Below are positions 11,099 to 42,525 of a stretch of DNA of 48,867 nucleotides, one piece after another. Numbering within the stretch: the stretch's first letter is position 1; every line of letters starts with the position of its first letter. This DNA is from Candidatus Enterosoma sp. GTDB lineage: Bacteria; Bacillota_I; Bacilli_A; RFN20; CAG-288. The stretch is from NCBI GenBank assembly GCA_050874925.1, contig JBNMLQ010000002.1, positions 1-48,867 on the forward strand, written 5' to 3'. Under the pieces are notes generated by a model. That model saw nothing but the letters and a program-made list of their open reading frames with translations. It searched no databases and was not told where the DNA came from. A program made the position numbers and the translations under genes.

Positions 11099-11108
11099 TT
11101 CCTTTGTA

Positions 11109-11218
11109 GCGATTCAGGGAAAGGTGAAATTCCTTCTCGGCGGTATACCCCGCGCGGACTTGTTCCATGATTTGGTGAAATTCCAAAGGCGACAGTAAAG
11201 GCTGGATAAAAGAATGGC
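11109..11218 (+). promoter_or_regulatory. FMN riboswitch (RFN element) aptamer
   Basis: Conserved RFN blocks AGGGAAAGGTGAAATTCC, CGGCGGTA, CCCGCG, GATTTGGTGAAATTCCAAAGGCGACAGT and GGCTGGAT. P1 pairing ATTC/GAAT. Confidence 0.9.
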
Positions 11219-11248
11219 TGACTGGTTTTTTTGCATCACAAGAATTCC

Positions 11249-15747: not shown

Positions 15748-16452
15748 ATGTCCAGAATCATTCTTGTCGGCGGAGGTTCATCTTCCGGTAAATCCTATAT
15801 CACGACCAGCGTCATCAAAAATCTCAACACCGATGAAATCACCAGGATTTCCATCGATGATTTCTATAAAGACCAGAGCAATATCTCCATGGAAGAAAGA
15901 ATCAAGGTCAACTATGACCATCCCAAGGCATTTGACTGGAAAATGATGAGAAAGCAGATTTCGGATCTGAAGAATGACATCCCCATCGACAAGCCCATCT
16001 ATGATTTCACCATCCACAATCGAAGTGACAAGACAGAACACATCGTTCCAAAGAAGCTTGTCATCGTCGAAGGCATCATGGCCCTTGTCGACAAACAATT
16101 GAGAGAGCTCGGCGATCTGAAGATTTTCATCACGGCAACACCGGAAGTCCGATTCCTGCGTCGCTTCATCCGTGACCATACGGAAAGAAAGAGAAGCTAC
16201 GAAAACATCGTCAGCCAATACATCACCACCGTCGCTCCGATGTATGAAGAAATCGTCAAACCGTCAAGCAACTATGCCGATCTCATCATCAACAACGATG
16301 GAGCCATCGCAAACCTTGCCATGGATGTCCTCTCCTGCGTCTTCAAGGATCAGCTGGAAAAGGCAACCGATGGAAAACCGCACATCAACAAGCCCTCCAA
16401 TGAATTCTCTGAAGAAGTCCTTAACAGGGTCTTCCAGAGCGCGACAAAATAA
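15748..16452 (+). CDS. udk: uridine kinase
   Basis: P-loop GGGSSSGKS and the NYDHPKAFD motif. Confidence 0.9.
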   Translation: MSRIILVGGGSSSGKSYITTSVIKNLNTDEITRISIDDFYKDQSNISMEERIKVNYDHPKAFDWKMMRKQISDLKNDIPIDKPIYDFTIHNRSDKTEHIVPKKLVIVEGIMALVDKQLRELGDLKIFITATPEVRFLRRFIRDHTERKRSYENIVSQYITTVAPMYEEIVKPSSNYADLIINNDGAIANLAMDVLSCVFKDQLEKATDGKPHINKPSNEFSEEVLNRVFQSATK

Positions 16453-17171: not shown

Positions 17172-17247
17172 GGGGCTGTAGCTCAATTGGGAGAGCGCCT
17201 CCATGGCATGGAGGAGGTCGAGGGTTCGATCCCCTTCAGCTCCACCA
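17172..17247 (+). tRNA. tRNA-Ala (anticodon GGC)
   Basis: 76-nt cloverleaf, G3:U70 identity pair, anticodon loop ATGGCAT, encoded CCA. Confidence 0.92.
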
Positions 17248-17346
17248 AAAATGATTGGAGATGAACCACCTTTAGAGTTCCATAAAGCAAATGGCTTCCT
17301 AGGTTTGGTTCTTGAACGGCATCCTAAGTAATTGGGGTGCCTTTTT
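17248..17346 (+). repeat. tRNA-Ala trailer plus terminator module, copy A
   Basis: Including the last 7 nt of the tRNA, it matches the reverse complement of 30761-30866 with about 8 mismatches in about 107 nt. Ends in the hairpin GGCATCC/GGGTGCC plus T5 (17318-17346). Confidence 0.85.
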
Positions 17347-17580
17347 CGTTTTGTTAGTTGAATTGGCATGCGCATTTCAATCTAGAGAAAATGAAATTTA
17401 TGCGTTTTTAAGACGGTTAGCGACACTTTAGCTCTTTAGTTTGCCGATAAGCCAGTGTTTGTTGTTCCATCATTTGAACTAAAAATGGCATAGAGCTTTT
17501 TGCTATGGGCGTTAAGGAAATATTGTTTAGTGCGTTATGTATCTTGAAAGAGACAAATTTGCATTTAAAAAAAGCATTCA

Positions 17581-17637
17581 AATAAACGGACAATATACGG
17601 ACATTTTATTGAATATATGTCCGTTTAATGATAAAAT
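17581..17637 (+). promoter_or_regulatory. promoter/operator module of AlbA_2 paralog 1 (repeat copy 1)
   Basis: TTGAAT (17609-17614), 17-nt spacer, TGnTAAAAT (-10 at 17632-17637). Perfect inverted repeat ACGGACAT (17597-17604) / ATGTCCGT (17617-17624) brackets the -35. A third direct copy ACGGACAA lies at 17586-17593. Confidence 0.6.
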
Positions 17638-17664
17638 GCAACCGAAAGAACGAGATATTTTTAT

Positions 17665-18993
17665 ATGGATAAGTTTATTGAGTCTGATGGAGTTGAGTTG
17701 AAGGAGAAATTCAATGATAAATTCGTCAAGGAAGTTGTGGCGTTTTTGAACACCAATGGAGGGAAAATTTTTATTGGAGTCACTGATGATGGTTTTGCTG
17801 TTGGAGTAAAAAATATTGACGAGACAATGAGAAAAATATCCGATGTTCTTACTACCCAGATTGAACCGCAGCCAGAAGATGAAGTAGATATCAGGGTTGT
17901 TTTTGCGGAAGGTAAAAGCGTTTTAGCTATCGATATTAAAAAAGGAAAGTTTTCACTCTATTGCATCAAAAAATATGGATATTCAGCCTCTGGTTGCCTT
18001 GTTCGCGTAGGAACGACATGTAGAGAAATGACCGATCAGCAAATTCATAGGCGTTATCAGCAACGTTTCTTTAACTCCGATATTTTGTCGTCATCGACGA
18101 GCTCTAGGCAGGATTTAACGTTCAATGTTCTGAGACCGCTTTATGTGGAAAAAGGTTTTATCCTTCATGATGAAACGTTTGCTAAAAATCTAGGGTTGCT
18201 CACAGATGAGGGAAAATACAATGTTATGGCGGAGCTATTGTCTGATCAGAATCGCTTTTCATTCATTTTCGTCAAATTCGCAGGTGAGGATAAATCGGCA
18301 ATTTCCCAGAGAAGCGATTATGGCCGGAAATCAATACTTTTCGGATATGAGCAGATGATGAATCGAATTTCAGCGGAAAACATATGCCTATCGGACACCA
18401 CGGTTAGACCTAGAGTAGACACATATTGTTACGACTATGACAGCGTGAACGAAGCGGTCGTCAACGCAATTGTTCACAATGATTGGAGCATTAGCGAACC
18501 TCAGGTGTCTTTCTTTTCTAATCGTATTGAGATTTTGTCACATGGTGGGCTTCCTTATAATCTTAGCCTAGAAGACTTTTTTGCCGGAGTAAGCCGACCT
18601 AGGAACGAAAAGTTAATGCGCATTTTTTCTGACCTTGACATCGTTGACCATACAGGTCACGGAATTCCGATTATTGTTAAAAGATATGGCAAGAATGCCT
18701 TTGAAATCACAGATTCGCATATTATCGTCACAATACCTTTCGATGAGAAAGTAGCTGTATCGTTGAATGCCCATTTAAATGTCGGTACAAATGGCGGCTT
18801 AAGGGCCAAAGACACAGCCTTTACCGTTCTTAGCGAAATTCGCAAGAACCCATCGTCAACGGCGGAAGAAATCGCCTGTAATATTGGGAAAAGCAAAAAA
18901 ACCGTTGAGCGCTATTTTTCTGCTCTTCAAAAGGAAGGCGCGATTCTTCGTGTCGGTTCCAAGAAGAACGGACATTGGAAAGTTGTTAAGTAA
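17665..18993 (+). CDS. AlbA_2 (Schlafen-like) / HATPase_c_4 / winged-HTH protein, paralog 1 (COG2865 type)
   Basis: N-terminus ESDGVELKEKF..FLNTNGGKIFIGV, central VNAIVHNDWS..ILSHGGLP..RNEKLMRIF..HTGHGIP, C-terminal wHTH ..TVERYFSALQKEGAILRVGSKKNGHWKVV. Confidence 0.85.
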   Translation: MDKFIESDGVELKEKFNDKFVKEVVAFLNTNGGKIFIGVTDDGFAVGVKNIDETMRKISDVLTTQIEPQPEDEVDIRVVFAEGKSVLAIDIKKGKFSLYCIKKYGYSASGCLVRVGTTCREMTDQQIHRRYQQRFFNSDILSSSTSSRQDLTFNVLRPLYVEKGFILHDETFAKNLGLLTDEGKYNVMAELLSDQNRFSFIFVKFAGEDKSAISQRSDYGRKSILFGYEQMMNRISAENICLSDTTVRPRVDTYCYDYDSVNEAVVNAIVHNDWSISEPQVSFFSNRIEILSHGGLPYNLSLEDFFAGVSRPRNEKLMRIFSDLDIVDHTGHGIPIIVKRYGKNAFEITDSHIIVTIPFDEKVAVSLNAHLNVGTNGGLRAKDTAFTVLSEIRKNPSSTAEEIACNIGKSKKTVERYFSALQKEGAILRVGSKKNGHWKVVK

Positions 18994-19024
18994 AAGGCCA
19001 GCAATTCAATTCTATCGACGTTTC

Positions 19025-19121
19025 CTCCACCAAAAAGATTTCCAAGCGAACCGGTATACGTTAATTGCAACGGATATCTAGGTGTCGTGTTCAAATGGCG
19101 TCCTTAACGGGACGTTTTTTT
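19025..19121 (+). repeat. degenerate copy C of the tRNA-Ala 3' end plus trailer plus terminator module
   Basis: CTCCACCAAAAAGATT versus CTCCACCAAAAATGATT at 17238-17254. Further collinear islands (GAACC, CTAGGT, GTTC, GGC.TCCT). Ends in the hairpin CGTCC/GGACG plus T7 (19099-19121). Confidence 0.55.
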
Positions 19122-19128
19122 GTTTGTT

Positions 19129-19164
19129 TACAATGACATTTACAGTGACTTTTACAGTGACATT
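19129..19164 (+). repeat. 3 x 12-bp tandem repeat (TACAATGACATT TACAGTGACTTT TACAGTGACATT)
   Basis: Read directly from the sequence. Shares the core GACATTT with the repeats upstream of paralogs 1 and 3. Confidence 0.85.
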
Positions 19165-19170
19165 CTAACT

Positions 19171-19226
19171 AATAAACGGACAATATAGGGCCATTTTATA
19201 GAAAATGTCCGTTTAACGATAGAATA
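19171..19226 (+). repeat. second, decayed copy of the paralog-1 promoter/operator module
   Basis: Aligns with 17581-17637 at about 49 of 57 positions with a 1-nt deletion. The central ACGGACAT site is mutated to AGGGCCAT. The -10 becomes TAGAAT. Confidence 0.8.
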
Positions 19227-19399
19227 ATCTTGTTATCTTTTCCATCGCTGACAACACGGATAAAGCTGCATACTTCTTCAAACGTATCATCTCCACAGGC
19301 GATATCATCTATTATTCTTCCAACCTGTCTGAAGCCATAGCAAAGACCATTGTCATTCCCAATGATGGAAGCAAGACCAAGTATGACGAAAGCATCCAA
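19196..19399 (-). pseudogene. possible truncated gene remnant (67-codon ORF, TTG start, 3' end runs into the repeat copy)
   Basis: ORF reads like real protein (VILGLASIIGNDNGLCYGFRQVGRIIDD) but has no RBS or ATG, and its last codons are supplied by the 19171-19226 repeat. Confidence 0.25.
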
Positions 19400-19493
19400 T
19401 GGTAGATGTTTCTTCGTATGACTCTATACTCAACTCTCGTTTTGATTTATAATCTATAGGCAATCAAAGAATTGCAAAAAGAGGTACTGTTTT

Positions 19494-20399
19494 ATGAAAA
19501 TCAATCTGGAAGTAAAGAAAGCATTGGAAGAAGGAAGACCTGTCGTAGCACTGGAATCCACCATCATTTCCCATGGCATGCCATATCCGAAGAACGTCGA
19601 ATGCGCTCTCGGTGTCGAGAAGGTCATCCGTGACAATGGTGCCATCCCTGCCACCATCGGTATCATCGAAGGAGAACCGATTGTCGGTATGACACCGGAA
19701 GAAATCGAACTCCTCGGCAAGACCAAGGGCATCGAAAAGGTCTCCAGGAGAGACATTCCCGTCATCTGTGCAATGAAGAAGTGGGGTGCAACGACCGTTG
19801 CAACCACCATGATCTTTGCCAAGATGGCCGGCATCGAATTCTTCGTCACCGGCGGTATCGGCGGAGCTCATAGAAAAGCCAACGTCACCTTTGATATCTC
19901 TGCCGATCTCGATGAACTTGGAAAGACCGATGTCACTGTCATCTGTGCAGGTCCGAAGGCCATCCTTGACCTTGGACTTACCCTCGAATATCTCGAGACC
20001 AAGGGTGTTCCGGTCCTCGGATACAATACCGACAAGCTTCCGGCCTTCTTTACCAGAACAAGCGATTTCAAGGTCGACTACAACGTCAAGACTCCTCTTG
20101 ACATCGCCAAGATTGTCAAAGCCAAGAGAGACTACCATCTTGAAGGTGGTGTCCTTGTCACCAATCCGATTCCGGAAGAATATTCTCTTCCTGCCGAATA
20201 CATCAATGCCGAAATCGACAAGGCTATCGCTGAAATGGAAGCCAAAGGCATCAGAGGAAAGGATGAAACCCCGTTCCTTCTTGCCAAGATCGTCGAACTT
20301 ACCGGCGGAAAGAGTCTGGAAGCCAACATCCACCTTATCATGAACAATGCCAAACTTGGTGCTCAGGCTGCCGTCGAATACGCCAAGCTCAGAAAGTAA
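19494..20399 (+). CDS. psuG: pseudouridine-5'-phosphate glycosidase
   Basis: VALESTIISHGMPYPKN and the remainder of the IndA/PsuG pattern; 301 aa. Confidence 0.92.
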   Translation: MKINLEVKKALEEGRPVVALESTIISHGMPYPKNVECALGVEKVIRDNGAIPATIGIIEGEPIVGMTPEEIELLGKTKGIEKVSRRDIPVICAMKKWGATTVATTMIFAKMAGIEFFVTGGIGGAHRKANVTFDISADLDELGKTDVTVICAGPKAILDLGLTLEYLETKGVPVLGYNTDKLPAFFTRTSDFKVDYNVKTPLDIAKIVKAKRDYHLEGGVLVTNPIPEEYSLPAEYINAEIDKAIAEMEAKGIRGKDETPFLLAKIVELTGGKSLEANIHLIMNNAKLGAQAAVEYAKLRK

Positions 20400-20400
20400 C

Positions 20401-21291
20401 ATGTCTGATACAATGCTCCTCTTTGGAGGCTCCAACATCGATTACATCGGAACAAGCGATGAGAAACTGATCGACGGAGTTTCCAATATCGGAAGCGTCA
20501 GCATCTCCTTCGGCGGAGTGATGAGAAACATCGCCGAGAATCTTGCCAGGCTTGGAAACCACATCGATTTCGTGACTGCCATCGGAAAGGATTCCCTTGG
20601 CATCAAGCTGAAAGAAGCTTTGCTATCCTTGGGAATCCATATCCATTCTCCAGAGAGCGACCTCATGACAGGTTCCTATCTTGCCATCAATGACTCGAAC
20701 CATGACATGGCCTTGGCTCTATGTGACAACAGGATCATCGAGACCATCAATCCGGATTACATCAAATCCTTGGATGCCTTGATAAAAGGACATGAATATC
20801 TTTCCCTGGATGCCAATCTCTCAAAGGAAGCCATCGACTTTCTCTTTAAGAATTACCCACAGAAGAAATTCATCGTCGAAGCCATCAGCCCGGAAAAGGT
20901 CGTCAAATTCAAAGACCATCTTTCAAAAATCTACCTGATCAAAGCAAACAGCCATGAAGCTGAGGCCTTGACAGGCAAATCGCTTTCTCCCATCACCATG
21001 ACCGAGGAGCTGTTGAAGAAAGGTGTAAAAAACGTCGTCCTCTCTTCCGGAGGAGATGACATCCATATCGGCTATGACCAGAACATCATCGAACCGGTAC
21101 AGGTAAAGCGGGAAACCGAATTTGTCAACACCACCGGCTGTGGAGATGCCTTGACCAGTGGTATCATCGATTATTTCCTCAGAGGCTATTCCCTGAAGGA
21201 ATCCGTAGAGTTCGGTCAGCTTCTATCCAAGCTGACACTGATGTCACCACACGCAACGACAGAAGAAGTAAAAAAATATAGGCATGACTAA
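20401..21291 (+). CDS. psuK: pseudouridine kinase (PfkB family)
   Basis: PfkB motifs (GGSNIDY.., NTTGCGDALTSG). ATG 1 nt after the psuG stop. Confidence 0.85.
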   Translation: MSDTMLLFGGSNIDYIGTSDEKLIDGVSNIGSVSISFGGVMRNIAENLARLGNHIDFVTAIGKDSLGIKLKEALLSLGIHIHSPESDLMTGSYLAINDSNHDMALALCDNRIIETINPDYIKSLDALIKGHEYLSLDANLSKEAIDFLFKNYPQKKFIVEAISPEKVVKFKDHLSKIYLIKANSHEAEALTGKSLSPITMTEELLKKGVKNVVLSSGGDDIHIGYDQNIIEPVQVKRETEFVNTTGCGDALTSGIIDYFLRGYSLKESVEFGQLLSKLTLMSPHATTEEVKKYRHD

Positions 21292-26856: not shown

Positions 26857-27094
26857 ATGATATGAAAGCAAAGCTTTTCCCTCATCAACGAACCATGCCT
26901 ACCCTCAAGGATCAGCTTATTTTTCAAAGATAATTACTACAAATTCCTACGACAGCCGAAGAAAAAGTAGCTTTCTATCGACATATTTCAAAACCAACTG
27001 TCAAAGTTTTATTCCGTGAAACCTGATAGCTATACCACATGAAATATCAAAGTTCCCAATCAGTCCTAAGATAATCAGGCTTGCCTGAATACGT

Positions 27095-27413
27095 CTAAAG
27101 ATTCTTGTAATAATCCGTGATATAGTCTTTTACGACAAAAGAGCCATCATTGATCTCAATAAGAGGTCATTCAGCTGCTTGAGAAGAGACAGCATGATAG
27201 GCTCTTCCTATTTTTTCCTTGTTGAAGTAACAAGGCATATCATAACAAACTCATAATATCCTTCATACATTTCCGATATCTCCTTGTTCAGTTCACGTAT
27301 CTTTTCATCGCTATCTAGGATATCGATACCGGTCAAAGGTTCTCCTGTCTGGGTGTTGCTTATTCAAATCGGTCCTTGCATGAAGTCTGATTTAAATTTA
27401 ACTGTCTTTTCAT
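27095..27413 (-). pseudogene. decayed gene remnants (frameshifted fragments)
   Basis: An 18-codon ORF with an RBS (27360-27413) continues in another frame as NTQTGEPLTGIDILDSDEKIRELNKEISEMYEGYYEF (27208-27363). A further fragment, PLIEINDGSFVVKDYITDYYKNL-stop, lies at 27095-27166. Confidence 0.3.
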
Positions 27414-27459
27414 TTTTCTCCGTATTGATAAAGCAAAAATTTTTATGCCTACAAACGCA

Positions 27460-28827
27460 TCAGTTTCTGTTTTTTTCCATCGGCTTGAATGTAGTCATGA
27501 ATCTTTTCAGCAAAAAAGTGCAGAAATACGGAAATGTATACACTTTATCATCATAACCTATGTTATTTGCTGACAATTTGAAGCCATAGGCAATATCCCT
27601 ATATTTATCCAAGGAAATCAAAGAACGCATCGACTTGGAATTACCGCTTCTTGCTTTTACTTCGATAGGAATCAGGTTTTCCGCAGAACGGATAAAAAAG
27701 TCTTCTTCAAGCGTTGAATCCTCGCGCTTATAATAATACAGCTTATATCCGGCTTTTACCAAAGCCTCACCGACAACATTTTCATAAAGCGCCCCCTTAT
27801 ATACACCGAGATTTTTATTTGCCCGCAAATCATCCTGTGATTCTTCATCCAAAAGCGAAACAAGCAAACCCGTATCCGCAAAGTACAATTTGAATTTGTC
27901 TATATTGCAATTCCCAGACAATGGCAGTTCCGGTGACTCTAAACAGTAACAAGCATTTACGATACCTGCATCAACCAACCATTCTGCACATCCGCGATAA
28001 TCCTTAAAACGGGCACCTTTTTCAATTTTTGATAGCTGGAATTTTTTATTTTCCTTTGCAAGTTGTGCCGGAATGCTATTGAAAACATTCAATATTCTCG
28101 TTTGATCGACTCCTTCTGCATATTTACGGATATCTTCTTTATAATCGGCAATGAGTTGATGTTGCGTATCCAAAGAACCCTCAAATGTCCCTTTTTGAAT
28201 ATAGTCTTTTACTACTGCAGGCATCCCACCTAAAATCACATAATCAAGAAATATTCCATGGAACAATGAAAATTCAAATTCATTGAACGGATTGAGATTC
28301 TTCATATGTGAAAGCATATTGTCAATCACATCCTCGTCATAACCCTTGGCCCATAAGAATTCTTCAAAATCCATCGACTGCATTTCATAATCGGTCTTAT
28401 TGCCAACGCTATTGCTTTCGATTCTTTTGTAATTGAGACCTAGCATGGAACCACTGCAAATCACATCGAATCTCCCGTCTTCATTAAAAAATTTAAGTGA
28501 TGTCGCTATTTCCGGGAACTCCGTTATCTCATCAAAGAATATAAGAGTATTTCCATCTATGAATTTCTTTGATGGATCCAGCAACGAAATGTTCTTGACA
28601 ACAGCCTTTGCTCCATAACCATCTATCGTTATTTTCTTGTATTTCTCTTCCTTTACAAAATTGATTTCGACAAAACTCTTATATCCAGCAATTTTCGCAA
28701 AATGACGAATAGATTCCGTTTTCCCTATCTGACGGCACCCTCTTACAATAAGAGGCTTCCTACGAGGGTCATTTTTCCAATCTAACAAAAAAGTATCTAT
28801 TTTTCGTCTTAAATAATCGTTTGACAT
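27460..28827 (-). CDS. AAA_14 / DUF4143 ATPase (COG1373 type)
   Basis: Walker A GCRQIGKT, Walker B LIFFDEI, C-terminal ..IPIEVKARSGNSK.. block typical of DUF4143. Start trimmed to MSNDYL behind AGGAG. Confidence 0.85.
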   Translation of the reverse strand: MSNDYLRRKIDTFLLDWKNDPRRKPLIVRGCRQIGKTESIRHFAKIAGYKSFVEINFVKEEKYKKITIDGYGAKAVVKNISLLDPSKKFIDGNTLIFFDEITEFPEIATSLKFFNEDGRFDVICSGSMLGLNYKRIESNSVGNKTDYEMQSMDFEEFLWAKGYDEDVIDNMLSHMKNLNPFNEFEFSLFHGIFLDYVILGGMPAVVKDYIQKGTFEGSLDTQHQLIADYKEDIRKYAEGVDQTRILNVFNSIPAQLAKENKKFQLSKIEKGARFKDYRGCAEWLVDAGIVNACYCLESPELPLSGNCNIDKFKLYFADTGLLVSLLDEESQDDLRANKNLGVYKGALYENVVGEALVKAGYKLYYYKREDSTLEEDFFIRSAENLIPIEVKARSGNSKSMRSLISLDKYRDIAYGFKLSANNIGYDDKVYTFPYFCTFLLKRFMTTFKPMEKNRN

Positions 28828-28849
28828 AGCAGTCTCCTGTTTTGCTTCC

Positions 28850-28878
28850 ATTATAGCAGTCATGAAAATGAGTCGCAA
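28850..28878 (-). promoter_or_regulatory. promoter of the AAA_14/DUF4143 gene
   Basis: On the minus strand: TTGCGA, 17-nt spacer, TATAAT. Confidence 0.55.
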
Positions 28879-29109
28879 GATTATTCAACACTTTTTTGAG
28901 CCACTTTTGACATATCATTTACACTTTTTCTGGCGAGTTTTGCATTGTCAATTACAAAAATCCTTTTTCTTATATAACAAAAGCAAGTTAAAGATTTTAT
29001 GACAAAAGAAGAAAATAAACCAAGTTGGCTAATATTGTAAACAGCATGATAAAATTCCAGGCAAACCTACACTAATGTTCCGATAAGTTTCATTATCGTT
29101 ACCTGTTAG

Positions 29110-30462
29110 CTATCTAATGACCTTCCAATACCCTTTTTTGTTCGTTCCGACTCTTTCTATGAAACCTTTCTCTTCCAAAGAGATGAAGACTCTTGAAACA
29201 GTTCTTCTTGATATGTTGAGGTTCACAACCAAGGCGCCATAAGAAACATTCGGATTATTGATTAGCTCTAGCAAGACTCTTTTCTCATTATCCGTCAACT
29301 CTGTATCCGATATCTTATCGCAATCTTCATTGATCTTTTCGACATCATTTTTGCCGAAGTTAATTTGTGATGTGACTTTCTCATTAAATGGAATGATGAC
29401 ATTGACGTAAGTATCATGCACGTCAAAGACACCTTTTCCATATTTTTCAATAATCTTAGGGATACCATGGCCGGTATGTTCCACTATTCCAAGCTTCAGG
29501 AAAATACGCATAAGAACATTATTTCGGGGATGACTCACACCATTAAAAAAATCATCGATGGTTATTTCTTTTGGAATGCCACCATGTGATGTGATTTCCA
29601 GCCTATCGTCATAGAAAGAAACCAACGGTTCCGAAATCGTCCAATCATTATGAACAAAAGCATTGACCAAAGCCTCATTGACTGCATCCATATCATAAAG
29701 ATACTCATCAACACGAGGCCTTACTGTTGTGTCAGTTACACAAATATTTTCAGCGATAAGCCTGTCCTTAATCCTTTGCAATCCTAATATTATGCTTTGA
29801 TTGCCATAATCATTTCTTTGAGAGATTGATGCTTTTGTGTTTCCTTTAAACTTAACAAAAATTATCGGAATCATATTTCTATCGGCTAATATTTCAGCCA
29901 TTAGATTGTATGTTCCATCTTCTCTTTTCAAATTAAAATTACTGCAAAAAGTCGATTCATTTATATGATACCCCTTGCTTACAAGCAAGACTTTCAACAT
30001 ATCGAAAGATAAAGGCGCATAATGGGATGGTGATTTAAGTATATAATCATCATCCACAAAATTCATTTTGTATCTATATTCGATTTCAGCAGTCATCATT
30101 TCCTTACACGTGGTGCCAATTCGAACAAGACACCCCTTTGATGAAAAACCATATTTTTTAATACAATAAAGAGGCTTCAAACCACGTTTTACGGAGATTT
30201 TAAGAACCGTCTTCCCCTCATCTATTAACAATGATATAGAAATTTCGTTTGAAGGTTCCGGCTCAATTTGAGACGTGATGATATCTGATATCTTCTTTTG
30301 TATGTCATCCATGCTGCCGTGCTGAAGACCGATAACGCCACCATTATCATCTATTCCAATTAGAATATCTCCACCATTACGATTCAAAAAAGAAACAATA
30401 TCCCTAACAACGGTATCAGAATATTTTTCTTTCAATTCCAAATTTTCAGATTCGATATACAT
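29110..30462 (-). CDS. AlbA_2 (Schlafen-like) / HATPase_c_4 / winged-HTH protein, paralog 2
   Basis: Collinear with paralog 1 at roughly half of positions by eye (ESENLELKEKY..FLNRNGGDILIGI..YCIKKYGFSSKGCLVRIGTTC..VNAFVHNDWTISEP..HTGHGIP..KKGYWKVI). Confidence 0.85.
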   Translation of the reverse strand: MYIESENLELKEKYSDTVVRDIVSFLNRNGGDILIGIDDNGGVIGLQHGSMDDIQKKISDIITSQIEPEPSNEISISLLIDEGKTVLKISVKRGLKPLYCIKKYGFSSKGCLVRIGTTCKEMMTAEIEYRYKMNFVDDDYILKSPSHYAPLSFDMLKVLLVSKGYHINESTFCSNFNLKREDGTYNLMAEILADRNMIPIIFVKFKGNTKASISQRNDYGNQSIILGLQRIKDRLIAENICVTDTTVRPRVDEYLYDMDAVNEALVNAFVHNDWTISEPLVSFYDDRLEITSHGGIPKEITIDDFFNGVSHPRNNVLMRIFLKLGIVEHTGHGIPKIIEKYGKGVFDVHDTYVNVIIPFNEKVTSQINFGKNDVEKINEDCDKISDTELTDNEKRVLLELINNPNVSYGALVVNLNISRRTVSRVFISLEEKGFIERVGTNKKGYWKVIR

Positions 30463-30499
30463 GTCAGCAAGTCCCCCCTAAATTAATATTATTATAAAT

Positions 30500-30655
30500 T
30501 ATTTTTGCCATTTACTAAAGATTTTTGCCATCGGCATGGGATTTTTGCCAAATCCATTGAGATTTTTGCCACATATGCCGGGATTTTTGCCAAATCCATT
30601 GAGATTTTTGCCACATATGCTGGGATTTTTGCCATTTGACAAGGGATTTTTGCCA
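30500..30655 (-). repeat. array of 8 phased repeats, core GATTTTTGCCA (TGGCAAAAATC in gene sense), period 20-21 bp
   Basis: Core starts at 30501, 30521, 30541, 30562, 30583, 30604, 30625 and 30646. Includes a 42-bp unit duplicated with one mismatch (30561-30602 and 30603-30644). Lies directly upstream of the TATAAT of paralog 2. Confidence 0.9.
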
Positions 30656-30760
30656 TTATGATTAGATAAAGAGATCAAATATATAAAATAAGATTTAACC
30701 CTTTGTTATAACGAAGGCATATTTCTGTTGTTTACTAATACATAAAAGCTATTTTTTATC

Positions 30761-30860
30761 AAAAAAGACATCCCAATTACTTAGGATGCCGTTCAAGAAC
30801 CAAACCTAGGAAACTATTTGCGTTATGGAACCCTAAGGGTGGTTCATCTCCAATCATTTT
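30761..30860 (-). repeat. tRNA-Ala trailer plus terminator module, copy B (inverted relative to copy A)
   Basis: Its reverse complement matches 17248-17346 with few mismatches, including the terminator hairpin and T-run. Confidence 0.85.
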
Positions 30861-30888
30861 TGATGGAGCCGAGCCAACCGGGAGCGAA
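30861..30888 (-). repeat. partial copy of the 3' 23 nt of tRNA-Ala(CGC) (att-like direct repeat)
   Basis: Minus-strand TTCGCTCCCGGTTGGCTC[GGCTC]CATCA versus the tRNA 3' end TTCGATCCCGGTTGGCTCCACCA: 21 of 23 positions plus a 5-nt internal duplication. Same orientation as the tRNA at 32720-32795. Confidence 0.8.
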
Positions 30889-30926
30889 AACTAATTTGAT
30901 GAATGGCAGCATTGCTAGCTAACGCT

Positions 30927-32264
30927 CTATTTTAGGATTTCCCAATAGCCATACTGATTCTTTCCAATTCGTTTAGCAAATCCTTTTTTTGTTAACGATG
31001 TGAGTATTCTTTGAATGGTTTTGTCCCCTCTTCCAAGTGCTTTTTCAAGTTCTTCTTTCCGAATTTTGGGGTTTGCCTTAAGCATCTGATAAACGATTGC
31101 TTCGTTATCTGAAAGAATTTTTAGATCTGCATGGTCAACCGCTTGAACAAATGATTGGACATTCGGCCGAATAAAATCAAAATAAAACCCATAAGCAGTA
31201 TTACGAAATTCCCATTCTACCTTTGCTTCCTGGCAAAGTTGATTCATTCTGCGAAAACCCGTGCCTGATTTTTCGACATCTTTGCACCGGAACAGAATGC
31301 CTAGCATCAATGGATTCCGCTTAATCGATGCAATATTTTTGCTAATAAAATCATATGGAGTAAGATCATCCGGAAACGATCCTGGGTTATAAATTGTTAC
31401 TTTATGTGGATGTATATCGATTTCTATCTCTGGATTGCTTCTGTAATCCGCATGTGCAAAAGCATTAATGACCATCTCATGAATAGCTCTTTCAGGAATT
31501 TCAGGTGTTTCTAGTCTTTTGCGGGAATTGAAGTCGACACGTGTATTTATATGACTTAAAATATAAACTTCTGCTTCATGAATCAATTGATAAATGTTTC
31601 CGTGAAATTCTTTTAAATCGAGGAAAGTGATTTTCTGATCCGTTGCAAAGCAGGCGGCTTTTAAAGAAACAGGATTACCTTTCCCAAAAATAGCATATCC
31701 TGCATTGTTAATTGTTTTATCGAAACATACTTCAAGAGTTGTAAGCAATTCCTCTTTGTCATAGGCTTTCATATCTAAGCGACCGCAAGATATGGATTCT
31801 TGATAGAAATCTAATAGCGTGGAATCGTCAATGTCATCAATAGTGTGCTTTCCTTCGCTTTCCCAACTAAGTGAATAGACAGCTTTTTTGACTAATCTGA
31901 CGAGTTCGTCACGACTCATTTTTCTATTTTGAGTTCCTACTCTGGTAAGAAACTTTCCATAGGCAGAATATGGGAATTGTCGTCCAGAAAAAGAAATTTT
32001 AATCACTGCTTTATTTTCAATGGGAATGACTTCGATAGTCGGGGTGATTTTCGGTTCAATATCACGCATGATGGATTCTCCTAAATCTTTTAAGGTTGAA
32101 TCACTGACAATTTGGCCGATTGCATTACCGTTATCTTTCACGCCGAAATAAACAGTTCCATATCCGTGTTTGTTCAAAATGGAAACCATGGATTCAATTC
32201 CTTCTCTTTTTTCACCAGTAGACTCTTTAAATTCGGTTATTTCTGATTCTTTGCCAAAGTTCAT
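30927..32264 (-). CDS. AlbA_2 (Schlafen-like) / HATPase_c_4 / winged-HTH protein, paralog 3 (divergent)
   Basis: ESEITEFKES..HGYGTVYFGVKDNG, central INAFAHADY..IYNPGSF..KRNPLM..KSGTGF, C-terminal wHTH ..TIQRILTSLTKKGFAKRIGKNQYGYWEIL. Confidence 0.85.
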   Translation of the reverse strand: MNFGKESEITEFKESTGEKREGIESMVSILNKHGYGTVYFGVKDNGNAIGQIVSDSTLKDLGESIMRDIEPKITPTIEVIPIENKAVIKISFSGRQFPYSAYGKFLTRVGTQNRKMSRDELVRLVKKAVYSLSWESEGKHTIDDIDDSTLLDFYQESISCGRLDMKAYDKEELLTTLEVCFDKTINNAGYAIFGKGNPVSLKAACFATDQKITFLDLKEFHGNIYQLIHEAEVYILSHINTRVDFNSRKRLETPEIPERAIHEMVINAFAHADYRSNPEIEIDIHPHKVTIYNPGSFPDDLTPYDFISKNIASIKRNPLMLGILFRCKDVEKSGTGFRRMNQLCQEAKVEWEFRNTAYGFYFDFIRPNVQSFVQAVDHADLKILSDNEAIVYQMLKANPKIRKEELEKALGRGDKTIQRILTSLTKKGFAKRIGKNQYGYWEILK

Positions 32265-32293
32265 ATTTGTGCCTCCTATTTAAAAATTATATA

Positions 32294-32341
32294 AAATGTC
32301 CAAGCAAATGTCCAAGCAAATGTCCAGGCAAATGTCCAGGC
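32294..32341 (-). repeat. 4 x 12-bp perfect-period tandem repeat (gene sense GC(C/T)TGGACATTT) overlapping the promoter of paralog 3
   Basis: Plus strand reads AAATGTCCAAGC x2 then AAATGTCCAGGC x2. Each unit carries TGGACA. The copy at 32309-32314 lies 17 nt from a TATAAT (32286-32291, minus strand). Confidence 0.9.
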
Positions 32342-32719
32342 GCTTTTATAAATTATTTCTATATAACAATCAAAAAAAGGCAAGCATATAGCATTTGACA
32401 AAGCCATTGTTTGTTGCGAATTCGTTAACAAAAAGTCCGCTCCTTCTGAATTCCTTCACATATTCAAGCCTGTCCTGGTCCGTGGATTTATTCATATGAT
32501 TCTGTTAATGAGAGAATATCAGCCCGCCATGGCATTGCTACTGAAAAGCTGGGTGTTCTGAATTGACATACAATCAATTTTAGGGCACAAAAAAAGCGGA
32601 CCGCCATGGATCCACTAATATTGGTTAGTGCTTAAGAATTTCACTAGCATCTAGCCGTATGCCGAAGCAGCCATTAATCAGGTAGACCTGAAGAACAGCA
32701 GTTCGACCACCATTCAATT

Positions 32720-32795
32720 TGGTGGAGCCAACCGGGATCGAACCGGCGACCTTCTCGTTGCGAACGAGACGCTCTCCCAACTGAGCTATGGCCCC
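32720..32795 (-). tRNA. tRNA-Ala (anticodon CGC)
   Basis: 76-nt cloverleaf on the minus strand, G3:U70, anticodon loop TTCGCAA, encoded CCA. Confidence 0.92.
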
Positions 32796-39741: not shown

Positions 39742-42525
39742 TCACTCGCTGCGCAATGCATCGACAGGATTCTGCCTGCCAGCCTTCAGGGAAGGAATCC
39801 ATGCGGCAATCATTCCGACAACGACAGAGAAGGCTGTCACGATCAGCCAATGATACCAGACGAAGTCCGATATCGTTCCGACATGGTAATTCGGATAATA
39901 GCAATTGAGAAGGGCATTGATGGGGAAGGATAAGACATAGGTGAAGAAGCTTCCGATGATGCCTGTCAATGTTCCGACGATGAGGGATTCGATTTCAAAG
40001 ATCCTGACGACATCACTCTTCCTGGAACCTAGGGAACGGAGCAATCCAATCTCTTTTTTCCTTTCCAGGACATTGTTGGAAGTAAGAAGTGCCGTCATGG
40101 CCGAACTGACGACAAGGGAAATAGCAGCAAAGATGAGAAGGATGATAGAAGCCAAGGATATCATCTCACCGATATCCTCAAGCATATAATTGGCTTCGGA
40201 AGAGACATAATAGACCTGCTCCTGGTCATTGGTAGCATGGTCAGGGTTCCCATCGATGCTGTTGAATGCATCCAGTTTTTCAAGAAGAAGGGATCGGTCC
40301 GTCAATGTCATCGGGAAGATGACGATGCTCTGGATGCTGCTATAGGCATTGGCATAGCTGATGACGGAGATGACACTCTGATATGTCTTTTCGATGTCTC
40401 CCTGAAGATAGGAGTTCATGATGCTTTCAAGCTGGGCCTGGATGACGTTCTCATCCGAAAGGTCTTTTCCGATGAGTTCATCCATGACAAGGCTTGCCCC
40501 ATGGGTCCTGGCCTCCTTCAAGAAGGTCGAAAAGCCATTGTAATAGAAATTACCCCTCACAAACGGATAATAGCAGAAATACCTGTTGAAGACTTCATTC
40601 AGGGCATTGGTCGGAAGGATGCTGCTTTCTCCGCTTTTATAGTCCTTCAGCACATCCTGAAGGTCCTGGATGAAAGAAGACAGAAGCTCTGTCTCCGACT
40701 TTCCGGTATCCTTCCTGAAGAGAAGGTTCTGATGTATGGTATTGCTCACCATGGACTTTGCATTGTCCGCCGTCAGGCTCTCCTGGAGAGAAGGAAGATA
40801 GCACAATGCGGTATTCAGGATGTTGATGGAGGAAGTAGACTTCGGACGGAGGATGCCTTTGATTCTCAGCTCTGTGCCATGGTTCTCATAGAATTCCTGG
40901 TTCAATTCGTTTTCGCTGTAATAGGTGACCTGTTTGTCATTGCCAAGCCCGTCCTTGACAGTCACAGTCTCATTCAGGGCATACCGTTCATCATTGGAGA
41001 AGACCTTATATGTCTTAGGAGACTTGCCGTTTTCTTCATTTCCGACGATATCCTCGAATTTGATCGGCTGGACCTTGGTCTTCAGGCTTTCGTCTTCTAC
41101 ATCCTGTTGGGTATCGCTGCTGCTATAGAAGCCTAATCTCTGAAGGATCCGGAAGCTGACGGAATTGTATTTGTCTACGACAAGGACAAGGTCGTTCTTG
41201 TCTGTCGGAAGGCTTCCTGCAATCACATCATACTGATCCAGGTTTCCATATAAGACATGGAAGATATTGTAAGGAAGCGTAGAGGAATAAGCATAGGAAT
41301 TGTAGTTTGTGTAAGTCGTATCGACATAGGAAAGACTTTCCTTCTTGTTCCCTGACTTGGAAGCAGGAAACATCGTTGCCAGGTTGAAGGAATAGTCATT
41401 GCCATAGCTTTCGATATATTCTCTGACGATGCCTTCTTTCTTGAGGCTGTCCAGATAGGAGAAATACTTGGCCGAGAAATGATTGTAGGTATAGGAAGTC
41501 TCGCTTCCGACATCCACCTTTGGATAGATTTCATCTACATCTGGATAGAGAGCCGAGGCATTCTTCTCTCCATAGCTTTCAGACTGGTTCTTCTGGTTGT
41601 AGCTAGGAACGACAACCGGAAGGCTTGTCGCCGTCTCGCTGTTGATGCGATAGGAATAGTTGCCGAAGCCTGTATTGATGGCCAAGAAAAAGCCGATGCC
41701 GATCATACCAAAGGAATTGGCAATACCGGAAAGAATGGTCTTCCATTTTCTGGATATGACATTCTTCATGGCCAGCTTGAAGCTCATGAAGAAGGACAGT
41801 CTGCTTTTTCTCAGTTCGGTCTTCTTTTCAATCTTTATATCCTTCTTTTCAATGGTTTCATCGGAAACAAGCTTTCCATCCTTCATGGAGATGATTCTGT
41901 CGGAATACTCTTTGGCAAGCTCTTCGTTATGAGTCACCATGATGACAAGACGGTTCTTGCTCAGTTCCTTGAGGAGGGACATGATGCTAAGGGAATTGGC
42001 ACTGTCCAGAGCACCTGTCGGTTCATCTGCCAAGATCACCCTGGGATCCGTGACAAGGCATCTGGCGATAGCGACACGCTGAGCCTGACCACCGGAAAGC
42101 TGGTTTGGCTTCTTGTCTTTCAAATCCAGGACACCGACCTGCTTCAAGGCATCCAAGGCCATGGATGTGATTTCCTTGTCCGGATAATCACGGACTTCCA
42201 AGGCCACCTTGACATTGTCAAGGACGCTGAGCTGAGGTATCAGATAATAATTCTGGAAGACAAAGCCGATGACGTTGTTGCGATAGCTGTTTTTCTTCTT
42301 GTCATCCATCTCTCTCAGAGAACAGCCATCGAAAAGGATGTCTCCGGAATCGAAGGAATCCAGTCCGCCGATACAGTTGAGAAGGGTCGTCTTTCCGCAT
42401 CCGCTCGGACCGAGGACGGAGACAAATTGGACATCGGGAAAGTCCAAGGACAGATCCTCGATGGCACGATACGGTTTCTTATCGACGAAATAGTCCTTCT
42501 TCAGATGGGTGATTTCAAGCATCAA
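39742..42525 (-). CDS. fused ABC transporter ATPase / FtsX-MacB-type permease with a roughly 480-aa extracytoplasmic domain
   Basis: Walker A GPSGCGKTT, signature LSGGQAQR, Walker B LADEPTGALD. Then TM1, a long hydrophilic domain and three C-terminal TMs (FtsX topology). Confidence 0.88.
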   Translation of the reverse strand: MMLEITHLKKDYFVDKKPYRAIEDLSLDFPDVQFVSVLGPSGCGKTTLLNCIGGLDSFDSGDILFDGCSLREMDDKKKNSYRNNVIGFVFQNYYLIPQLSVLDNVKVALEVRDYPDKEITSMALDALKQVGVLDLKDKKPNQLSGGQAQRVAIARCLVTDPRVILADEPTGALDSANSLSIMSLLKELSKNRLVIMVTHNEELAKEYSDRIISMKDGKLVSDETIEKKDIKIEKKTELRKSRLSFFMSFKLAMKNVISRKWKTILSGIANSFGMIGIGFFLAINTGFGNYSYRINSETATSLPVVVPSYNQKNQSESYGEKNASALYPDVDEIYPKVDVGSETSYTYNHFSAKYFSYLDSLKKEGIVREYIESYGNDYSFNLATMFPASKSGNKKESLSYVDTTYTNYNSYAYSSTLPYNIFHVLYGNLDQYDVIAGSLPTDKNDLVLVVDKYNSVSFRILQRLGFYSSSDTQQDVEDESLKTKVQPIKFEDIVGNEENGKSPKTYKVFSNDERYALNETVTVKDGLGNDKQVTYYSENELNQEFYENHGTELRIKGILRPKSTSSINILNTALCYLPSLQESLTADNAKSMVSNTIHQNLLFRKDTGKSETELLSSFIQDLQDVLKDYKSGESSILPTNALNEVFNRYFCYYPFVRGNFYYNGFSTFLKEARTHGASLVMDELIGKDLSDENVIQAQLESIMNSYLQGDIEKTYQSVISVISYANAYSSIQSIVIFPMTLTDRSLLLEKLDAFNSIDGNPDHATNDQEQVYYVSSEANYMLEDIGEMISLASIILLIFAAISLVVSSAMTALLTSNNVLERKKEIGLLRSLGSRKSDVVRIFEIESLIVGTLTGIIGSFFTYVLSFPINALLNCYYPNYHVGTISDFVWYHWLIVTAFSVVVGMIAAWIPSLKAGRQNPVDALRSE

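Follow-up and report, generated by a model that had tools for sequence, protein, structure and literature searches.

Bacterial Schlafen (SLFN) tRNases were characterised in 2026 with Cash and the SLFN-pAgo proteins. In the SLFN-pAgo protein RzAgo, ATP drives assembly into a tetramer that cleaves tRNA, and guide RNA holds the protein in an inactive filament. The same study named the pairing of an SLFN_AlbA_2 domain with a PF13749 GHKL domain the 'Schlatpase' supradomain, counted it in 60,692 of 103,533 prokaryotic Schlafen proteins, mostly small and many with a C-terminal helix-turn-helix (HTH), and gave as its defining motifs E(x)4(D/E)xK, the SAFAN box, an acidic triad and the GHKL residues E314/N318 (10.64898/2026.05.29.728809). 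The HTH-tailed form has been noted as the commonest Schlatpase architecture. Cash, in which SLFN is joined to Csx15, is a tRNase that cyclic tetra-adenylate (cA4) switches on, and the report on it lists proteins that combine SLFN, ATPase and DNA-binding parts as associates of restriction-modification (R-M), BREX and type I CRISPR systems (PMC13462974). Here we examine three genes of the HTH-tailed type, termed Schlatpase-HTH #1, #2 and #3, in a 48,867-nucleotide stretch of Candidatus Enterosoma sp. (contig JBNMLQ010000002.1; the window), two of which lie with an ATPase gene in an AT-rich patch beside tRNA-Ala(CGC). The gene families are known or catalogued; what is new is a rule by which the DNA motif arrayed at the promoter of such a gene recurs in the part of the gene that encodes the linker before the HTH, and the way in which cassettes are cleanly set at tRNA 3' ends is also beyond the routine. 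We slightly favour the reading that the locus is a strain-variable islet to which small cassettes, each of one gene and without an integrase, were added one after another at the 3' end of tRNA-Ala(CGC), with a sister site at tRNA-Ala(GGC), and that it holds three independent defence-type genes, of which the Schlatpase-HTH genes each carry a motif probably read by their own product.

Schlatpase-HTH #1 (450 residues; 29110..30462, minus strand), #2 (445 residues; 30927..32264, minus strand) and #3 (442 residues; 17665..18993, plus strand) each consist of an SLFN_AlbA_2 domain, a HATPase_c_4 (GHKL) domain and a C-terminal winged helix-turn-helix (wHTH), all above the Pfam cut-offs. SLFN_AlbA_2 (PF04326) scored 67.2, 67.5 and 72.3 bits against a cut-off of 25.3 (E from about 1e-18 to 6e-20), HATPase_c_4 (PF13749) scored 61.4, 45.9 and 53.5 bits against 26 (E 6e-12 to 8e-17), and the wHTH was matched by the TrmB, MarR_2 and HTH_24 profiles. 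Paralog #1 is 50% identical to #3 and 25% identical to #2. The Schlafen nuclease signature E4..E9-x-K11, of the form E(x)4(E/D)xK, the (S/A)(F/I)LN..GG box (SFLN..GG) and D39 are invariant across the three paralogs, and all of them carry the GHKL motif E263xxxN267 with a GxG lid (GHG or GTG); in #2 the residues read E6..E11xK13, E263xxxN267 and GTG. D39 is the likely counterpart of SLFN13 D248, as judged from the motif and not from a superposition. For comparison we used 80 metagenome loci with relatives of #1 and #3 at 49-80% identity; the E(x)4(E/D)xK signature is kept in 79 of these relatives and the GHKL catalytic residues in most.

The AlphaFold2 model of #1 had a mean predicted local distance difference test (pLDDT) score of 68.5, with about 80 in the three domains and less than 50 in residues 369-387, the linker between GHKL domain and wHTH, which is predicted to be disordered. 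Foldseek searches with this model returned DIP2311 of Corynebacterium diphtheriae (PDB 3LMM; E 2e-12), SLFN12 (7lre; E 3e-4) and SLFN13-N (5yd0; E 6e-4), and further the SAMD9 tRNase (9o0d), SLFN14 (9nyy), GHKL folds and MarR-family wHTHs (root-mean-square deviation 2-3 Å). DIP2311 was the best whole-model match and the only PDB relative detectable by sequence; in contrast to the window proteins it is longer (about 555-583 residues), it is only 15-17% identical to them, and it is a structural-genomics entry without known function. A first-pass annotation of this DNA, made from the letters alone, had proposed structure prediction and a look for Schlafen nuclease residues; the SLFN12, SLFN13-N, SAMD9 and SLFN14 matches agree with the fold of the Schlafen C-lobe. 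Because the nuclease and ATPase motifs are intact, a Schlafen-type nuclease effector is recognisable, at the level of motifs, in all three paralogs; the earlier view that the patch holds no recognisable effector has to be given up, the more so as DUF4143 of the adjacent ATPase has a PD-(D/E)XK fold. Nuclease and ATPase competence of the Schlatpase-HTH proteins would be expected from the families named.

Database entries describe relatives of these proteins as 'winged helix-turn-helix transcriptional regulator' or 'predicted HTH transcriptional regulator', of the COG2865 type. NCBIfam gave only weak HTH matches and no family, and the PADLOC hidden Markov model for pAgo matched the SLFN and GHKL module of the paralogs. 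An internal start that would yield the wHTH alone was looked for by eye, for ATG codons only and not for other starts, and no in-frame ATG was seen after the linker array in the sequences read. Partial and complete relatives also occur in phages: the Streptococcus satellite phages Javan72, 77, 80, 96, 416 and 757 (matches H39-H44) carry the GHKL and wHTH part alone, without a Schlafen domain, and Mycoplasma phage phiMFV1 (match H31) has a near full-length relative adjoining repB.

Compared to RzAgo, the window genes share the SLFN and GHKL module, the E(x)4(D/E)xK signature, a SAFAN-like box and the E(x)3N motif, and the small, often HTH-ended Schlatpase proteins described with RzAgo have the window architecture (10.64898/2026.05.29.728809). 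RzAgo differs in its Argonaute sensor and guide RNA, where the window proteins end in a MarR-like wHTH, and operator arrays at promoter and linker are not described in that preprint. Cash, too, is a Schlafen nuclease from prokaryotes whose catalytic E..(D/E) pair lies at the N terminus, and uses tRNA cleavage as an abortive-infection effector; it depends on type III CRISPR through the cA4-binding Csx15 sensor, whereas the window proteins have GHKL and wHTH parts (Nat Commun 2026, PMC13462974). With Cash and the SLFN-pAgo tRNases characterised, the Schlatpase named and the ATPase family catalogued as the defence candidate PDC-S01, the first-pass description of both families as functionally uncharacterised is out of date.

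Each paralog has its own array of a short motif at its promoter: TGGCAAAAAT for #1, GGACATTTGC for #2 and ACGGACA for #3. The array of #1 (30501..30655, minus strand) contains eight copies spaced by 20-21 nt, and its motif also stands upstream of all nine relatives with at least 68% identity. That of #2 (32286..32341, minus strand; TRF score 83) contains 3.8 copies of GCTTGGACATTT in gene orientation with a 12-nt period, located as AAATGTCCAAGC x3.8 at 32294-32338; the -35 element TGGACA lies within the array and is followed after 17 nt by a TATAAT -10 element, at 11/12 the best promoter match in the region. In #3 two copies of ACGGACA are followed by an inverted TGTCCGT (17581..17637, plus strand). 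The short tandem arrays that the first-pass annotation had reported for each gene of the patch are real. Each gene also holds one copy in its linker region: a degenerate cGGCAAAAAT encoding FGKND in #1 (29347..29356, minus strand), where relatives carry (GKND)3-5; AATGTCCAA, inverted relative to the promoter array, just before the wHTH of #2 (31155..31163, minus strand); and AATGTCGGT, with one mismatch to the promoter motif, in #3 (18778..18786, plus strand).

The weight of this promoter/linker rule comes from the relatives and not from the window. Among these, upstream motifs are clade-specific: TGGCAAAAA occurs 2-8 times within -160..-27 in all #1 relatives of at least 68% identity and is 32-fold enriched upstream over the rest of the loci, and in the clade of about 50% identity ATGTCGG is found at -95..-41, with 19-fold enrichment. 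One operator copy lies in the spacer between -35 and -10 (for example TTGATAtaATGGCAAAAATaatgTATAAT) or overlaps the -35. The remaining copies are intragenic, forming a 12-nt tandem array at about +1106, +1118 and +1130 in the linker between GHKL domain and wHTH, which encodes (GKND)3-5 in the #1 clade, (NVGL/I)3-4 in the ATGTCGG clade and, from TGGCACyGAT, (GTDx)2-3 in the 56-60% clade. In 57 of 59 loci the class of the linker motif equalled that of the upstream motif (A 7/7, B 45/47, C 4/4, E 1/1), off-diagonal matches filled 2 of about 295 cross-class cells, and the motif was absent from the rest of the gene. This cross-class table replaced an all-pairs permutation of linker against upstream k-mers, which was dropped as confounded, most loci belonging to one clade. 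A literature search found no paper describing the pattern.

Concordance of promoter and linker was observed in seven lineages, which include three beyond the main classes. The Mycoplasmopsis gene L097 has AGTGACA x3-4 at its promoter and an inverted ATGTCAC x4 in its linker; the second paralog of L017 has GTGGGTGATAAA x4 in the linker, encoding (VGDK)4, with GGGTGATAAA at -12 and an inverted near-copy at about -55; and the linker of the second paralog of L029 reproduces the direct-direct-inverted layout of its promoter. In this last case the encoded peptides differ (SDIS/SDTL versus NVTL), which argues for selection on the DNA and not on a peptide repeat. The recognition helix of the wHTH is kept within motif classes and differs between them, with ISRRTVSR accompanying TGGCA-type motifs, VTKRTIER accompanying ATGTCGG, and ..T(I/V)QR accompanying ATGTCCA and ATGTCAC. 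In loci L017-L096 the 12-nt unit of the linker (+1090 to +1150) is present in 0, 1, 3 or 5 copies in the TGGCAAAAA class and in 2-5 copies in the ATGTCGG class; since copy number varies between close relatives, the length of the linker from ATPase to HTH is plastic. In four loci (L060, L065, L066, L074) the linker has no array, and the whole promoter layout, with two inverted and two direct CCGACAT/ATGTCGG sites, recurs 25-60 nt past the stop codon (about +1348 to +1384), resembling the downstream copy after window paralog #3. In a distant member of the family on a Candidatus Chlorohelix plasmid (L101, 1153-2868) the 12-mer AATGCGGGATTA is found three times in the promoter region and once inside the gene at +877, outside the linker. 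Sharing of a motif between promoter and gene body may extend beyond the clades studied here.

Downstream of paralog #3, arrays of the same kind stand without a gene (19127..19225, plus strand): TTTACAGTGACA x3.2 (19127-19164), whose motif class recurs in L001, L097 and the second paralog of L029, and an element that copies the #3 operator at 89% (19171-19225), about 270 nt upstream of psuG. These orphan arrays are probably relics of replaced cassettes; alternatively, paralog #3 may also regulate the pseudouridine genes.

The AT-rich patch is bounded by tRNA-Ala(CGC) (32720..32795, minus strand; ARAGORN, and 66.6 bits with Rfam). Strains diverge exactly at the 3' end of this tRNA, CCACCAAA, which ends at 32718. 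The leader of cassette #2 follows it (32595..32719, minus strand), a diverged 'trailer' with a terminator hairpin (32616-32595). The distal bracket of this cassette is a decayed duplicate of the tRNA-Ala(CGC) 3' end, TTTTCGCTCCCGGTTGGCTCGGCTCCATCA (30861..30890, minus strand), beside trailer T3 (30762..30860, minus strand; inverted repeat I1), which has its own terminator hairpin (30790-30767). Paralog #3 sits in a like bracket: a second tRNA, tRNA-Ala(GGC) (17172-17247; ARAGORN, Rfam), and trailer T1 (17248-17346) lie immediately upstream (17172..17346, plus strand), and a decayed tRNA-Ala 3' fragment (19010-19036) with trailer T2 and a terminator (19010..19126, plus strand) closes cassette #3. 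The direct-repeat brackets are 32720-32744 with 30861-30890 and 17225-17251 with 19010-19036, and T3 shares 92% identity with the trailer behind tRNA-Ala(GGC) over a 111-nt repeat (30762-30872). Because the decayed tRNA(CGC) 3' end and a trailer recur in mid-patch, and because the tRNA of the relative L001 runs straight into a trailer, gene #2, together with the trailer, terminator and promoter that belong to it, is recognised as an insertion of about 1.86 kb bracketed by a duplication of the tRNA 3' end. The first-pass annotation had seen the patch as bounded by a tRNA gene and tRNA fragments. The tRNA-Ala(CGC) does bound it; of the fragments, one lies after paralog #3 (19010-19036) and the other (30861-30890) is not an outer boundary but lies inside the patch, between the two Schlafen genes, as the seam of cassettes that were inserted serially.

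Strain comparisons confirm this anatomy. The sole related genome in the species collection is a 'Bacillales bacterium' metagenome-assembled genome (L001), and presence or absence at the species level rests on metagenome contigs. In L001 the glycerate kinase protein is 94% identical and the DNA 96% identical over the 12.4 kb common with the window; the alignment runs through the UDG gene and tRNA-Ala(CGC), identity ceases exactly at the tRNA 3' end (32718), and the tRNA is followed by its own trailer of about 100 nt, ending in a terminator, and by AGTGACAT repeats. The cassette #2 insertion is present in L006, L007 and L015. It is absent from L001 and from L009-L013 (98% identity), where a T1/T3-type trailer directly follows tRNA-Ala(CGC). 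In L008 (98%) the tRNA is followed by the first 33 nt of trailer T2 (19037-19069), within a 45-nt exact match (19025-19069) that includes the common tRNA 3' end. There are thus four junction types at tRNA-Ala(CGC), all broken at CCACCAAA, and the exact cassette #2 protein was found in the UDG-tRNA context alone (one genomic context). Because strains differ in its presence with the breakpoint at the tRNA, the patch is accessory, as the first-pass annotation had it, and is horizontally acquired and strain-variable.

Similar turnover was seen at the sister site and in more distant loci. L022 and L023 are syntenic with the paralog #3 site (uridine kinase, 71% identical, followed by tRNA-Ala(GGC)) yet hold a #1-type cassette, and four of the seven closest #1 relatives with enough upstream sequence have a tRNA (Ala-CGC, Ala-GGC or Ser-GCT) on the same strand, 280-440 nt upstream. 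In L020 and L021 (5793-6000) the roughly 200 nt between tRNA and Schlatpase gene are near-identical though the tRNAs differ (Ala-CGC versus Ser-GCT), and the cassette therefore starts directly behind the CCA end of the tRNA, with a terminator of its own. A trailer of about 100 nt follows every tRNA-Ala gene or fragment (17248-17346, 19037-19126, 30762-30860, 32595-32719, and 195-305 in L001); its 5' part (AAAATGATTGGA.A.GAACC...) is conserved, it carries a terminator hairpin and shows little covariation, and Rfam has no family for either the trailer or the arrays. The two inverted, 92%-identical trailers 13.4 kb apart could permit inversion of the segment between them. In streptococci, integrase-less cis-mobilisable elements (CIMEs) and integrative and conjugative elements accrete in tandem at tRNA genes. 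Like such tRNA islands, the window cassettes insert at a tRNA 3' end, duplicate that end, accrete in tandem, vary in presence and have low guanine-plus-cytosine (GC) content; in contrast to CIMEs they are units of about 1.8 kb with one gene each, their own trailer and terminator, and no integrase in the window.

The GC content is 0.362 across 27121-32719, compared to 0.449 in the left flank and 0.457 in the right, which confirms the compositional shift first noticed (0.36 versus 0.45). All 5.6-kb windows with a GC content of at most 0.37 fall over this patch, and the paralog #3 cassette (17248-19460) has a GC content of 0.388. Three long open reading frames, all on the minus strand, occupy the patch; by the reading-frame list and Pfam, none of the three frames of more than 100 residues in 26857-32720 is a recombinase, integrase or transposase, in agreement with the first-pass annotation. 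Five metagenome contigs from different samples (L002-L005, L016), which enter from the histidine-kinase side, all terminate exactly at 27120. Because these independent contigs all end there, 27120 is probably the left edge of the strain-variable region; a shared end suggests a strain-variable junction or a repeat. The edge falls within a stop-riddled, non-coding stretch (26857..27459) that had been taken for decayed gene remnants. Its stop codons are plain, but no gene family could be recognised in it or in the 'remnants' at 19226-19460 (Pfam, E <= 1). A tblastn search of the four proteins against the masked window likewise found no remnants of the patch genes in intergenic DNA, and weak matches at 40270-40647 (a shadow frame of an ABC-transporter gene) and 47204-47046 (an unrelated reading frame) were rejected as spurious.

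The patch is flanked on one side by genes for a response regulator and a histidine kinase and on the other by those for a UDG-family protein, a glycerate kinase and PriA; no CRISPR, R-M or BREX genes lie within 6 kb on either side. Paralog #3 has uridine kinase (15748-16452) on one side, and on the other pseudouridine-5'-phosphate glycosidase (Indigoidine_A/PsuG) with a PfkB kinase (PsuK-like) at 19494-21291; the nucleoside-salvage genes beside this putative tRNase are probably hotspot context only. The window further contains an FMN riboswitch (RF00050, 86.3 bits; 11106-11221, plus strand), which has no relation to the patch.

The remaining gene of the patch (27460..28878, minus strand) encodes an ATPase with AAA_14 (E 2.6e-21) and DUF4143 (E 1.9e-37) domains, so that the first-pass domain calls hold above the Pfam cut-offs in all four genes. 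The PADLOC check proposed at that stage identified it as a full-length PDC-S01 candidate: profile PDLC04786 matched with E 2.3e-153, residues 23-460 covering profile positions 3-435 of 439. By inspection it carries Walker A (GCRQIGKT) and Walker B (LIFFDE) motifs and, in its C-terminal part, D..EVK. Translation probably starts from the ATG at 28839, the gene is called as 459 residues in L006, and no database record of the exact 459-residue protein was found. An imperfect, weak 33-nt repeat of 2.1 copies lies upstream (28888..28956, minus strand; TRF-type tandem-repeat search). DUF4143 is listed as a PD-(D/E)XK nuclease-fold family (PMC3424549), and PDC-S01 is the fourth commonest defence candidate, a single-gene system with about 39,000 instances whose validation is pending (PMC12988326). 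The window ATPase has the same end-to-end make-up of ATPase and PD-(D/E)XK parts, with nothing that distinguishes it from PDC-S01.

In its general lines the first-pass view of the patch, as accessory, made of autonomous modules and plausibly tied to defence, was right. How the Schlatpase-HTH proteins may act can be modelled on RzAgo and Cash. Their Schlafen domains would assemble into an active, ATP-gated, oligomeric tRNA endonuclease, and tRNA cleavage would arrest translation, resulting in abortive infection or toxicity. The protein's own wHTH would bind both the promoter array and the linker array; at the promoter this would give tight negative autoregulation of a potentially toxic nuclease, and the intragenic array would be an auxiliary operator acting through looping or as a roadblock. 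Intragenic auxiliary operators are known from lacO2 inside lacZ and galOI inside galE. As in these cases, operators would stand at the promoter and within coding DNA and serve an oligomeric repressor; unlike lacO2 and galOI, the predicted intragenic sites form a tandem array in the DNA of the repressor's own linker and co-vary with the promoter motif. Their three to eight evenly spaced sites may further make the arrays a template for an oligomer that is inactive and bound to DNA, in the way that guide RNA keeps RzAgo inactive. We put forward only tentatively, as a possibility that is rather doubtful as a whole, a 'self-DNA tether' in which the wHTH reads its private motif twice in its own gene, binding represses transcription and templates an inactive oligomer of the tRNase, and release or re-assembly with ATP fires the nuclease. 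The cassette anatomy, the motif concordance and the strain variation are observed directly; binding of the operators by the wHTH, the trigger and an anti-phage function are what we infer from them.

Several points weigh against the reading of serially inserted, self-reading defence cassettes. Cleavage of tRNA, binding of the repeats and protection from phage are predictions for Schlatpase-HTH proteins. The linker copies in the window are single, and a longest-shared-word test does not separate them from other parts of these AT-rich genes. The correlation between recognition helix and motif is confounded by phylogeny, and concerted evolution of both arrays could be due to gene conversion instead of one binding protein. 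Tandem repeats as such are no more frequent upstream of these genes than of control genes (8.7% versus 11.3% at a score of at least 40), so that only the motif content is informative. Direct repeats of tRNA ends were not found around the L020-L023 cassettes, and the window has no integrase. The defence-island context is weak, with an HsdR-like reading frame (a type I R-M neighbour) in just one of the 80 loci of the #1/#3 clade. One representative of PDC-S01, the family of the ATPase, gave no protection against T4, T5 and T7 (bioRxiv 10.1101/2024.09.26.614923).

That single HsdR neighbour also accords with a view in which the Schlatpase-HTH proteins are ordinary autoregulated transcription factors with a cellular regulon, their Schlafen and GHKL parts being a sensing module without a role in defence. 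We consider this unlikely. The database labels, including COG2865 'predicted transcriptional regulator', and the overlap of operator-like arrays with promoters speak for it, as do the extra #3 operator copy upstream of psuG and the neighbourhood of the 80 loci, where most of the 10 neighbours sampled look housekeeping from their translations (uridine kinase confirmed by tblastn; prolyl-tRNA synthetase and methionine synthase by eye). However, near-universal retention of the nuclease motif, with the GHKL residues kept in most relatives, is not expected of a mere sensor, elsewhere in the loci the motif is essentially missing, and the genes are strain-variable, AT-rich, multi-copy and turning over at tRNA hotspots. 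Relatives moreover are found on conjugative plasmids and within operons of type I R-M systems; the more distant L097 and L099, on Mycoplasmopsis and Aliarcobacter plasmids, stand between hsdS and hsdR, and published surveys link proteins with SLFN, ATPase and DNA-binding parts to R-M, BREX and CRISPR. The same turnover at tRNA 3' ends, with its accretion and orphan operator relics, would suit selfish addiction elements of toxin-antitoxin type, in which an SLFN toxin is kept silent by wHTH autorepression and the unit spreads at tRNA hotspots. This proposal draws further on the autonomous, tightly self-regulated single-gene architecture and on the occurrence of relatives on plasmids, in one Mycoplasma phage and, as the GHKL and wHTH part only, in satellite phages. 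A separate labile antitoxin and a mobility gene are both lacking, however, and the exact cassette #2 protein keeps to its one context; we think addiction improbable as the explanation, to about the same degree as the transcription-factor view, and it is in any case compatible with defence, many abortive-infection systems being toxin-antitoxin-like.

Doubt may also be directed at the arrays themselves, which might be slippage-prone low-complexity DNA (the linker being peptide repeats), or recombination or arm-type sites kept alike by gene conversion. Type I hsdS genes (EcoR124) contain 12-nt repeats that set spacing, a parallel to the linker unit; copy number varies between relatives (0-5 in linkers, 2-8 upstream), the arrays sit between tRNA fragment or trailer and gene, and the generic repeat rate at control level fits as well. 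Yet the arrays hold a fixed register with the -35 and -10 elements even in loci without a tRNA (L017-L019, L024, L025), the linker orientations in the second paralog of L029 are kept while encoding different peptides, motif classes track the recognition helix, and no recombinase is present, so that we give this explanation little credence. Least probable of these is a single cooperating system made up of the ATPase and the Schlatpase-HTH genes next to it. They do share a strand, head-to-tail, both in the window and in L006, and in other subfamilies an HTH-less Schlatpase follows a different, TrlF-family ATPase in an overlapping operon. But no AAA_14/DUF4143 reading frame occurred within 6 kb in any of the 80 loci, by tblastn (E < 1e-5) or by phmmer on all reading frames (E < 0.01), in a search for which the window's own ATPase gene was the positive control (1070 bits). 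The gaps of 230-460 nt between the genes hold their own promoter-like elements and terminators, in keeping with the first-pass view of autonomous modules and not an operon, and a second Schlatpase paralog adjoins in about six of the 80 loci. Because none of the 80 loci carries the ATPase, and because the PDC-S01 candidate is by definition a single gene, the ATPase neighbours the Schlafen genes and is not their partner; the adjacency stressed in the first-pass annotation is coincidental, and by the yardstick which that annotation had itself set, the result counts against a functional pairing. The TrlF-Schlatpase pair is apparently a genuine and distinct ATPase-Schlatpase operon on conjugative plasmids: in the Escherichia coli IncC plasmid pNDM10505 (L102) and a Pseudomonas avellanae plasmid (L103) the HTH-less Schlatpase (about 386 residues) overlaps the 3' end of the gene for the TrlF-family, AAA-like ATPase, and in L102 it precedes hsdS.

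The antiviral, tRNA-cutting action of bacterial Schlafen proteins has been demonstrated only where they are fused to Argonaute, Csx15 or Ig-like sensors, and both recent papers leave open how the commonest architecture, Schlafen with GHKL and HTH, is activated. The locus described here illustrates, in a natural setting, the turnover of 1.8-kb cassettes without an integrase at tRNA 3' ends, and a neighbour from PDC-S01, among the commonest defence candidates, is here not to be taken for a partner. The promoter/linker rule would predict the DNA that each protein reads and so turn the question of activation into binding, reporter and recoding tests. The self-DNA tether, if true, would be a control logic undescribed so far for a family of more than 60,000 Schlatpase proteins, with a cognate DNA ligand for each member.

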